This document shows positions 4,153 to 58,598 of a stretch of DNA of 64,000 nucleotides, piece by piece. The stretch is from Octopus vulgaris (Eukaryota), in assembly GCA_951406725.2 (NCBI GenBank), contig OX597823.1, forward strand, positions 27,962,001-28,026,000, read 5' to 3'. The notes below the pieces were generated by a model. It saw only the letters and a program-made list of their open reading frames with translations. It ran no database searches and was not told the DNA's origin. How positions within the stretch are numbered: the stretch's first letter is position 1; every line of letters starts with the position of its first letter. The position numbers and the translations under genes are program-made.

Positions 4153-4894
4153 AATAAACTCTTTAATATGTTTAATTCGATTATATCGACATTTTAATCT
4201 TTATATTTCTTCATTATGTAAATTAAATTGAAAAATAAATTACTGACCTTAATTACTCATAGACATATTTCGTATGAAACACTAATTAGAATTAGTAACA
4301 AAATTCTAATTAAAAATACTTATTTTGCGAAATAAAAAATATTAGCACGGTGACTTATAATATTTTAATTATTTCAACAAAACTGGGAGACAACTATGGA
4401 ATGTTTCAGTTTTATTAGACCTCGTCAGCGAACGTAGACACATCCCACTCTACCTGGTGAAATCGTGATCATATTTTCAATTAGGGCTGGATGATATTAT
4501 ACACCTGTTGTTATAAAAAAAAATTATCATTTTAAAACTTAAAAAAAAAAAATGACTGCTGTGAATTGTTTTGACACCATCCGCATGGAGAAGAGCAGTT
4601 AATGTAGTTTTAATAAATTAAGAAAAAAAGAATTTGAAAAATTTAATTAGAAACGCTACATTCCCAACTCGGTGGGCTCTCCTCTCATGGCCCTTGTTAT
4701 GCCTAATCCCTAAGGAACTGAACTAATTACTACATGCAGCCCTTCCTTTCTTTGAGCATCGATTCACTGGAATTCACTGTTAATACCTTTTCCTCAGGTA
4801 TTTTCATACAAAGGTTCAGGAGAAAAATTAATGACCTGCAAAGGTTATAGGCAGCTTTCATTCCTCCAGACCAAGTAAATACAACAGTTGTATC

Positions 4895-16494: not shown

Positions 16495-16634
16495 AGGTGA
16501 GGACCAAAATCCCTCAAGGGATGTCAAATATCCAAGTCTACCGGCACAGTCTAAGCAAAGAATATATATAAAAATATATACATATTTACATTATTTACAT
16601 TTGACGGATATTTGTCCTCATCTTGTTTGTTGTT

Positions 16635-16680
16635 AACACAACGTTTCGCCTGATATACCCTTCAGTCTTCATCAGGTGCC
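16635..16680 (-). ncRNA. Minimal type I hammerhead ribozyme
   Basis: GGCAC-CUGAUGA-A-GACUGAAGGGUAUAUCAGGC-GAAAC-GUU-GUGUU. Helix I is 5 bp with two G-U pairs, helix II is CUGA:UCAG, helix III is the loopless palindrome AACGUU. Confidence 0.75.
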
Positions 16681-16788
16681 TTGTGGAAATTTCGAACCTC
16701 GGTTCTCATTCCTAAGGTATTTTTCGATGTTGTTGTTGTTGTTATTATTACTTTTATTATTATTATTATGATTATTATTATTATTATT

Positions 16789-20515: not shown

Positions 20516-21130
20516 GGGCAGCGAGTTGGCAGAAACGTTAGTACGCCGAGCGAAATATTTAGCGATATTTCGTCTGCCGTGACGTTCTGAGTTCAAATTC
20601 CGCCGAGGTCGACTTTGCCTTTCATCCTTTCGGGGTCGATAAATTAAGTACCAATTACGCACTGGGGTCGATGTAATCGACTTAATCCCCTTGTCTGTCC
20701 TTGTTTGTCATCTCTGTGTTTAGCCCCTTGTGAGTAGTAAAGAAATAGGTATTTCGTCTGCCGTGACGTTCTGAGTTCAAATTCCGCCGAGGTCGACTTT
20801 GCCTTTCATTCTTTCGGGGTCGATAAATTAAGTACCAGTTACGCACTGGGGTCGATATATTCGATTTAATCCGTTTGTCTGCCCTTGTTTGTCCTCTCTG
20901 TGTTTAGCCCCTTGTGGGCAATAAAGAAATAAGAAACGCTAGCAAGCCGGGCGAAATACTTAGTGGTATTTCGTCTGTCTTTATGTTCTGAGTTCAAATT
21001 GCGCCGACGTCGACTTAACCTTTCATCCTTTTGGGGTCGGTAAATTAAACACCAGTTGCGTACTGAGGTCGATCTAATCGACTGGCCCCGTCCCCCAAAA
21101 TTTCGGGCCTTGTGCCTAGAGTAGAAAAGG
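20516..21130 (+). mobile_element. SINE family C tandem trimer
   Basis: GTTCTGAGTTCAAATT...CCTTTCATCCTTTCGGGGTCG-like core repeated three times (about 20584, 20768, 20985). Confidence 0.85.
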
Positions 21131-26815: not shown

Positions 26816-26935
26816 GCTTACGGCCATATCACGTTGAAAGCACCGGTTCTCGTCCGATCACCGAAGTTAAGCAACGTCTAGCCTAGTTAGTACTTAGATG
26901 GGTGACCGCTTGGGAAACCTAAGTGCTGTTAGCGT
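26816..26935 (+). rRNA. 5S rRNA gene copy, probably a pseudogene
   Basis: 120 nt GCTTACGGCCATATCACGTTGAAAGCACCGGTTCTCGTCCGATCACCGAAGTTAAGCAACG...AGTACTTAGATGGGTGACCGCTTGGGAAACCTAAGTGCTGTTAGCGT. Helix mismatches, AGTACTTAGATGG where 5S normally has AGTACTTGGATGG, and no oligo-T terminator. Confidence 0.92.
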
Positions 26936-33181: not shown

Positions 33182-33259
<78 letters not shown>

Positions 33260-33340
33260 GGTCCCGGGTTGAGTCGGGGTTAACCACAGTAAATAAGGTA
33301 CTCAATACATAGCAGAGTAAATTAATTTATTTTATAGAAG

Positions 33341-33392
33341 GAGCTTCTACAGGACTAGAACTGTTTCATTCAAAGAAATCATCAGGAAGCTC
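33341..33392 (-). ncRNA. Type I hammerhead ribozyme (minus-strand twin)
   Basis: GAGCUUC-CUGAUGA-UUUCUUUGAAU-GAAA-CAG-UUCUAGUC-CUG-UA-GAAGCUC. Confidence 0.85.
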
Positions 33393-33449
33393 AGGAGCTT
33401 CCTGATGATTTCTTTTGAATGAAACAGTTCTAGTCCTGTAGAAGCTCCT
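33393..33449 (+). ncRNA. Type I hammerhead ribozyme, canonical core
   Basis: Helix I AGGAGCUUC:GAAGCUCCU (9 bp), CUGAUGA, helix II UUC:GAA, GAAA, helix III ACAG:CUGU. GUA cleavage triplet at 33438-33440. Confidence 0.88.
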
Positions 33450-33454
33450 TCTAT

Positions 33455-33505
<51 letters not shown>

Positions 33506-55245: not shown

Positions 55246-55306
<61 letters not shown>

Positions 55307-55307
55307 G

Positions 55308-55357
55308 CAAAAACTGTCTGATGAACGGCAACGAGAAACTCAGAGTAACAGATTTTG
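55308..55357 (+). ncRNA. Type I hammerhead ribozyme at the 5' edge of a 149-bp insert (55307-55455) in (TA)n
   Basis: CAAAA-A-CUGU-CUGAUGA-A-CG-GCAA-CG-A-GAAA-CUC-A-GAG-UA-ACAG-A-UUUUG. Confidence 0.85.
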
Positions 55358-55453
55358 TTGAATTTTCTGCTGCTTAAAATAAAGCATATTACTCTACTAC
55401 TGGTATTTGAGTACTCTTTTTTCCACCTTGTTTCACATTTATGTGTTTACTCC

Positions 55454-55498
<45 letters not shown>

Positions 55499-55529
55499 GT
55501 ATGTATGTATACATGTATATATACACATA

Positions 55530-55576
<47 letters not shown>

Positions 55577-57975: not shown

Positions 57976-58506
57976 GGGTTTCCGCCTACCAAATCAACTC
58001 ACAAGGCTTTGGTCGGGTCGACGCTATAGTAGAAGACACTTGCTCAAGTTACCCGGAACCATATGGTTGGGAAGCAAGCTACTTTATATCATAAAATTTG
58101 CCATAAAGGCATTACAAAGAATAGCTTGCGGGCTGGATATATACATTGATGAGGTGAATGATGAAATAAGGATGATATTGATGAGAGAAGACAAAAAATG
58201 CCCGCCGATTTTCTGCTTCTCTAAGACATTGTTCGTTTTTTTTCAACAGAATAAACAAAACGAGGTATTGAACCTCTCACAACAGTTTTGGCAATTATTG
58301 GACTTAATAGTCCATTACAAATATTAACATGCAAAAATATTCAATATACAATCAACACTAGTCCATTTACAAATGAGGCGCTGGGCCTCTTACACTTTAT
58401 AACAGTGAGGCTTATCAACTTCTTGTCAAAGGGGAGATGAGGAATTATGTACATTATTTACATTATTTACAATTGACGGATATTTGTCCTCATCTTGTTT
58501 CTTGTT

Positions 58507-58552
58507 AACACAGCGTTTCGGCTGATATACCTCCCAGCTTTCATCAGGTGTC
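58507..58552 (-). ncRNA. Minimal type I hammerhead, cleavage triplet mutated (GCU)
   Basis: GACAC-CUGAUGA-AA-GCUG-GGAGGUAUAU-CAGC-C-GAAAC-GCU-GUGUU. Confidence 0.7.
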
Positions 58553-58598
58553 TTGGGGAAATTTCGAACCTGGGTTCCATTCCTAAGGTATTTTTCGA

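Follow-up and report, generated by a model that had tools for sequence, protein, structure and literature searches.

The systems closest to the insert described here are the Penelope-like elements of the Hydra clade, for which Craig et al., 2021 give RWK, DKT, CxCX5C, CxxC and CxH as the diagnostic protein motifs, and of which nearly all the families they describe insert in (TA)n (PMC8557442). Solo terminal repeats (pLTRs), inverted pLTRs and tails on one side only have already been described. In the account of Cervera and de la Pena, the hammerheads of pLTRs are mostly single dispersed motifs from truncated elements, their monomers inactive and their dimers weak (PMC4209133), and stems II of 2 bp are reported to be common in natural hammerheads (PMC3088659). 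For PAc, the Poseidon element of Anolis carolinensis, Frangieh et al., 2024 showed in vitro that two tail ends are internal start sites of reverse transcription (PMC11167929). The reports on the Hydra clade and on PAc treat the in vivo role of Penelope hammerheads as still open (PMC8557442, PMC11167929).

Here we compare these systems with a 149-bp insert of Octopus vulgaris that an earlier, sequence-only reading had taken for a minimal, retrozyme-sized element beginning exactly at a canonical hammerhead. The insert lies in a stretch of 64,000 nucleotides of contig OX597823.1, which is called the window throughout. Its parts and its targets are listed in Table 1.

Table 1. Coordinates of the insert, its parts and its flanking targets in the window
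Feature	Position	Strand	Basis
Solo 5'-truncated terminal fragment (pLTR end and tail) of a probable Hydra-type Penelope-like retrotransposon; element 1-149	55307..55455	+	148/149 bases identical to the pLTR of L045
Type I hammerhead motif, helix I 55307-55317 with 55348-55358	55307..55358	+	Sequence, pair probabilities, folds, descriptor scan
Catalytic core CUGAUGA and GAAA around a 2-bp helix II (GCAA loop) with an A·A closing mismatch	55318..55338	+	Sequence
4-bp self-complementary helix III with a 1-nt centre; cut predicted after 55347	55338..55347	+	Pairing calculations
Optional 71-nt tail between fixed 3' ends 78 and 149 (putative reverse-transcription start sites)	55385..55455	+	3' ends of 98 copies
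Left target, (CT)13 then (TA)14	55254..55306		Sequence
Right target, (TA)n tract	55456..55531		Sequence

Results

The insert and its hammerhead motif

The window carries a single copy of the insert, whose outline had been read correctly from the sequence alone: 149 bp at 55307-55455, with a TA-rich tract on either side. The final TA of the left tract is a 2-nt microhomology that also fits element positions -2/-1, and no target-site duplication is readable around the insert inside the (TA)n microsatellite. The 3' border lies 108 nt beyond the predicted cut of the hammerhead and coincides with one of the element's fixed 3' ends. No part of the parent gene was found inside the 64-kb window. About 30 kb past the right end of the window, the family has a long inverted copy (L056, G000:C10:28054500-28062000) that includes part of the gene.

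Only one hammerhead is present in the insert. It has the type I core, CUGANGA / GAAA / UH, with three helices, of which helix III forms only between two molecules. The core strand CUGAUGA occupies 55318-55324 and GAAA 55335-55338. Two of the helices that had been proposed for the motif were confirmed, namely a helix II of 2 bp capped by a GCAA tetraloop (55326-55333), with an unpaired A on each side (55325 and 55334), and a near-palindromic helix III, ACUC-A-GAGU (55338-55346). Since H17 is A55347, the cut is predicted after 55347 (element A41), where it had been placed before. Helix I pairs 55314-55317 with 55348-55351 and, beyond an A·A mismatch, 55307-55312 with 55353-55358, at pair probabilities of 0.82-0.99 with the exception of the first U-A pair (0.42). 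The claim that the insert begins at helix I holds in so far as a helix I strand runs from 55307, but in full-length copies the helix continues for another 4-5 bp upstream (positions -6 to -1), so that its true base lies outside the insert. Likewise, 'canonical' describes the core and the three helices but not position 10.1-11.1, which is A·A in the insert instead of the G-C pair of most hammerheads, and Rfam at the gathering score returned no hammerhead match in the window, only a 5S rRNA elsewhere. The latter, at 26816-26934 (+), scores 102 bits and stands right after a (TTA)n tract, as an isolated copy or a 5S-derived repeat.

A relaxed type I descriptor gave three matches in the window, whereas 300 dinucleotide shuffles averaged 0.01 (three of them had any), and the 34-nt hammerhead core has 3,674 exact copies in the genome, where the reversed control has none; we therefore do not regard the motif as a product of chance. 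The existence of homologous copies is thereby established. Folding says less. The whole 149-nt RNA shows no stability excess over shuffles (z = +1.02) and its minimum-energy fold is without helix I, and the first 54 nt alone fold into helices I and II. Within one molecule helix III has a pair probability of at most 0.001; its self-duplex has an energy of -7.4 kcal/mol. Two 58-nt copies cofold to a double hammerhead at -21.6 kcal/mol, as against -19.4 kcal/mol for two monomers. Given that this gain of 2.2 kcal/mol is not above that of shuffles, 294 of 300 being as good, and that the double-hammerhead fold is absent in 78- and 149-nt constructs, folding is compatible with activity and is not evidence for it. 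With its single motif, the copy in the window is predicted neither to cut alone nor to make a circle.

Older subfamilies have A·G or A-U in place of the A·A and carry U4C/U7C changes in the core. In L007-L030, U4C is present in many copies, some of which also have U7C and an A-U pair closing helix II; these variant counts are drawn from overlapping loci and are not copy numbers. No compensatory changes could be demonstrated across the subfamilies, which are too similar.

Such variation bears on whether the motif has decayed into a non-cutting hammerhead that is kept as a protein-binding stem-loop, its catalytic look being residual. The A·A at 10.1-11.1, the 2-bp helix II and the lack of a visible loop-loop contact would all agree with decay, but natural hammerheads are reported to include stems II of 2 bp and of 1 bp, one of the latter active, as well as U·U at 10.1-11.1 (PMC3088659), and the supplement of the Hydra-clade study gives U·U at this place for many Hydra hammerheads (PMC8557442). 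The U4C of older subfamilies fits decay too, whereas in the youngest subfamily, which is intact, the canonical core is complete. Mutation of the hammerhead is reported to have left in vitro insertion of the lizard element unaffected, and no reads ended at the cut (PMC11167929), to which the octopus family adds that its 5' ends are not heaped at the cut. Although we doubt that the motif has lost its activity, the idea retains some plausibility; it concerns function only and is compatible with the solo-pLTR explanation of the insert.

The window contains other motifs of related interest. Between (TA)n tracts at 33257-33459 lies a head-to-head insertion of another hammerhead family, with cores at 33385 (-) and 33402 (+), a helix I of 6 bp and a helix III of 4 bp with an 8-nt loop. 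Its long arm has a tail and its short arm none, the tail region being 77% like that of the insert's family over 48 nt. Two related minimal hammerhead-like motifs, at about 16620-16690 (-) and 58495-58560 (-), stand beside trinucleotide repeats and have a longer helix II and a very short, palindromic helix III. At about 4400-4440 (-), a core-like CUGACGA...GAAA motif failed the descriptor. At 20566-20931 there are two copies of a 184-bp unit, found as a three-copy array in L029, that is a common interspersed or satellite-like repeat.

The parent element and its protein

When the genome (2.8 Gb, microsatellite-rich) was searched with the DNA of the insert, 40 scored candidates out of 381 gave 58 matches, many of them adjoined by a short inverted copy. 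Several longer copies run upstream into a common AT-rich region of 1 kb (3' UTR) and the endonuclease end of an open frame. In a search with this frame, in which 150 matches were scored from 18,506 candidates, 23 of the 150 protein matches fall in a 727-codon open frame, which is complete in 10 of 12 fetched loci. The arrangement is clearest in L045, a partial tandem with a unit of 3,356 bp in which the 3' UTR (about 1 kb) is followed by the 149 bp and these by the next frame, with its first ATG at element position 217, the sequence past 149 being the 5' region of the gene. The lone difference between the window copy and the pLTR of L045 is at position 92. The family is young, its intact copies being about 99% alike.

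The protein has 711 aa, with YRDDG at 344. Relatives of about its length number at least 1,074, and the best 120 are 43-58% identical to it. Its predicted structure (modelled from 116 sequences, pLDDT 93) has telomerase reverse transcriptase 3du5 as its best Foldseek match (E 5.2e-10), and a wide structure search was also led by reverse transcriptase folds, which cover the first 480 residues only. Pfam assigned no family to the 711-aa protein, and a profile search of the sequences of solved structures gave nothing meaningful. For residues 595-617, which have no direct Pfam match, the aligned stretch of a bivalve homologue (P0002) is one that Pfam assigns to GIY-YIG, and the C-terminal part scores 0.95 to GIY-YIG clusters in the Atlas, as a feature match. 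We therefore call the C-terminal endonuclease a putative GIY-YIG enzyme, on the strength of the aligned homologue with its Pfam match and of the Atlas lead.

The element has the traits of the Penelope-like class: a single frame with a telomerase-like reverse transcriptase, partial tandems (pLTRs), inverted 5'-truncated copies and a tail on one end. It also has those of the Hydra clade, namely insertion in (TA)n, a hammerhead in the pLTR and the full motif set, RWK, DKT, CxCX5C, CxxC and CxH being at positions 35, 113, 562, 667 and 695. Judged by these motifs and by comparison by eye, it appears to be a new family of this clade. An initial assignment to the Neptune clade, made from the Cys-rich linker, was dropped for Hydra once the motifs were checked.

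Full copies contain a candidate 75-nt GT..AG intron with a branch-site-like motif after position 96 (L045:5800-5874), just past the long 3' end (149), although its splice signals are weak; an intron in the 5' region is a trait of some Penelope-like clades. No data set listed as containing the sequence is recorded as RNA. No splice joint matching the candidate was seen in the contigs of eight presumed RNA runs, which cannot show absence, and unspliced contigs span the 3' end of the candidate intron. The tail-to-TA junction is seen in the contigs of all eight runs, which cannot show starts, ends or circles, and summed depth is high over positions 70-150, a value not readable as expression.

Copies in the genome and their 3' ends

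We classified 98 of the first 100 listed among the 3,674 exact cores; they lie in 63 insertions. Their 3' ends are at about 78 in 52 copies and at about 149 in 38, both ends being followed by TA repeats, while four run into the gene and four end otherwise. In head-to-head pairs the tail is on exactly one arm in 29 of 31 (p 4.6e-7 against 0.5). The TA junction of the window copy is common to 61 copies. Of the 30 of these that were examined, 23 end at 78, five at 149 (the window copy included) and two otherwise, so that 'minimal element' was a misnomer: most of the examined copies that begin in the same way have only 78 bp.

These data bear directly on whether the insert could be a stand-alone minimal retrozyme, a 149-nt unit that is transcribed, self-cleaved, circularised and re-inserted as such. 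Its length is near the 150-450 bp given for animal retrozymes (PMC7229834), it has a hammerhead, and its exact span is that of all five copies just mentioned; but that hammerhead is the only one and the borders do not run from cut to cut. A preprint derives animal retrozymes from pLTRs (bioRxiv 10.64898/2026.07.22.740005), which would allow such an origin, but the insert is not independent of a coding element, 148 of its 149 bases being those of the pLTR of an intact coding copy. Past position 149, moreover, comes the 5' region of the gene and no return to position 1. The search for tandem copies that had been suggested as a check went against the proposal: same-strand cores among the 98 sampled are spaced at 2,794-3,365 bp, and none of these copies, out of 3,674, is part of a short tandem. 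Given also that 5' ends are not heaped at the cut, as set out below, we hold the stand-alone retrozyme to be largely refuted and very improbable. What survives of the original proposal is a mobile, hammerhead-bearing (TA)n insert with a near-palindromic helix III and many homologues; it belongs to a coding element of 3.36 kb.

A 5' hot spot in terminal copies

In 43 of 94 terminal arms (29 of the 63 insertions) the 5' stop falls at -8 to +12, a zone around the CTAG palindrome at the helix I base; 5' ends near -183, an alignment artefact of a subfamily indel, were counted as long arms. Among arms chosen without requiring the core, a set that overlaps the loci of the DNA search, 20 of 30 stop at -10 to +14 and one at the cut. 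Gene-crossing arms differ. We obtained 26 of them from 25 of 30 loci, the other five loci being dropped for lack of a gene-linked pLTR; 21 of the 26 run through the -8 to +12 region, where no arm stops (Fisher's test, p 2.4e-5 counted by arm and 7.2e-5 by insertion). Four of the remaining five stop at 73-80. Gene-crossing arms starting at 73-80, by the short 3' end (78) and so near exact unit length, are those of L046, L055, L188 and L194. We found no description of the contrast between terminal and gene-crossing arms in the literature searched, which covered few subscription journals.

There is no pile-up of 5' ends at the cut (position 42) either among core-less partner arms (0 of 7) or in the set of 30, samples that are biased to core-bearing insertions and to arms covering 46-119. 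Cleavage products were considered as templates and rejected, 5' ends not being heaped at position 42.

Random truncation alone does not explain so sharp a hot spot. The wall, seen in 29 of 63 insertions and in 0 of 21 gene-crossing arms, could mark a SINE-like class in which pLTR copies, solo or palindromic, have an internal promoter near -8 and are copied anew, in trans, by the element's protein, so that short copies beget short ones. An internal promoter is reported for the Penelope pLTR of D. virilis (PMC2377424), and in a rotifer the pLTRs suffice for mobilisation in trans. That identical palindromic junctions recur is also in keeping with such a class, but junctions range from -8 to +12 and one 5' junction occurs with both 3' ends, as expected of independent events. 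Furthermore, the position-92 variant of the window copy is found in the long, gene-linked L001, L003 and L006, and since gene-linked copies have it in common, no short master is needed. We consider a self-perpetuating short class unlikely.

Two RNA templates would account for the contrast, if one started near -8 and the other (a tandem read-through or a circle) lacked that end; a joining preference limited to early cDNA synthesis would fit it too. In one version of the former, short copies would be run-off cDNAs primed in the 5' pLTR of an uncut linear transcript starting near -8, and gene-bearing copies would come from a unit-length circle, formed by dimeric cleavage at the two end hammerheads and subsequent ligation, with the loss of that 5' end. 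Stops at -8 to +12 in 43 of 94 terminal arms but in 0 of 21 gene-crossing arms would thereby be explained. As a whole the scheme is speculative and probably wrong in this form; if true, the two templates would be genomic evidence that a Penelope hammerhead, here with a helix II of just 2 bp closed by A·A, is at work in vivo.

Discussion

We believe that the insert is very probably a solo terminal-repeat (pLTR) fragment, derived from a young Penelope-like family that bears the motifs of the Hydra clade. Reverse transcription that began at the element's fixed 3' end and halted shortly beyond the hammerhead is its likely source. It is likely an ordinary by-product of element copying and not an independent circular-RNA element.

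We propose the following model for its origin. By analogy with Poseidon (PMC11167929), the protein of the element would nick (TA)n, and cDNA synthesis would be primed from within the element RNA, at site 149 (or 78). Synthesis would terminate near the base of helix I. In solo copies such as that of the window, the end of the cDNA would be joined to the target through the common TA, and in hairpin-like copies it would be joined to a second cDNA through the CTAG palindrome. The role of the hammerhead would sit in the parent element, where two copies might pair through helix III and cut as a double hammerhead, a reaction that is probably weak or protein-helped.

The single locus matters little: it belongs to a known class of retrotransposon and is one terminal fragment among thousands. 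As a test system the family is useful, being young and abundant, with 3' ends at two exact positions and 5' ends that cluster sharply, and the contrast between terminal and gene-crossing arms offers a cheap test of the proposed circular intermediate.

With the animal non-LTR retrozymes the insert shares small size, absence of coding, a type I hammerhead and kinship to pLTRs (PMC7229834; bioRxiv 10.64898/2026.07.22.740005). In contrast, those are described as tandem cut-to-cut units giving circles (PMC7229834), and the insert is a single pLTR fragment with ends defined by the element. It resembles the pLTR motifs of Cervera and de la Pena, which likewise occur mostly as single dispersed motifs from truncated elements, and also as close opposite-strand pairs, with a palindromic helix III that implies action as a dimer; their consensus, however, has a long helix II with G10.1-C11.1 and a short helix I, as opposed to the minimal helix II and long helix I found here (PMC4209133). 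PAc, as characterised by Frangieh et al., 2024, resembles the octopus family in its two fixed 3' ends with an optional tail, its AT-rich targets and a hammerhead near the junction of pLTR and ORF (PMC11167929). It belongs to a different clade, its tail is 30-40 nt long compared with 71 nt here, and its 3' ends lie inside the frame, whereas both lie upstream of it here. The candidate 75-nt intron has the same length as the intron reported for the Penelope element of D. virilis (PMC2377424).

The nearest likeness is to the Hydra clade as presented by Craig et al., 2021. Its members are generally shorter than 3 kb, compared with the 3,356 bp of the present element with its 3' UTR of about 1 kb, and Hydra-1_Obim, at 2,507 bp, is a separate family with a different hammerhead and a protein that is, by eye, alike and not identical (PMC8557442). 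In the supplement of that study, the hammerhead of Hydra-2_aMil agrees with that of the insert in its 4-bp proximal helix I and in its helix III strands, which enclose a 1-nt centre, and the hammerhead of Penelope-3_HM shares helix III including the central A (PMC8557442). A near-palindromic helix III has thus been described before. Helix II, 2 bp long and closed by A·A, is shorter than any in the published table, in which the Hydra rows have 3-7 bp (PMC8557442). To judge from this comparison of motifs, only the shrunken helix II with its A·A closure appears to be unusual in the hammerhead of the insert, and the remainder matches published Hydra hammerheads.
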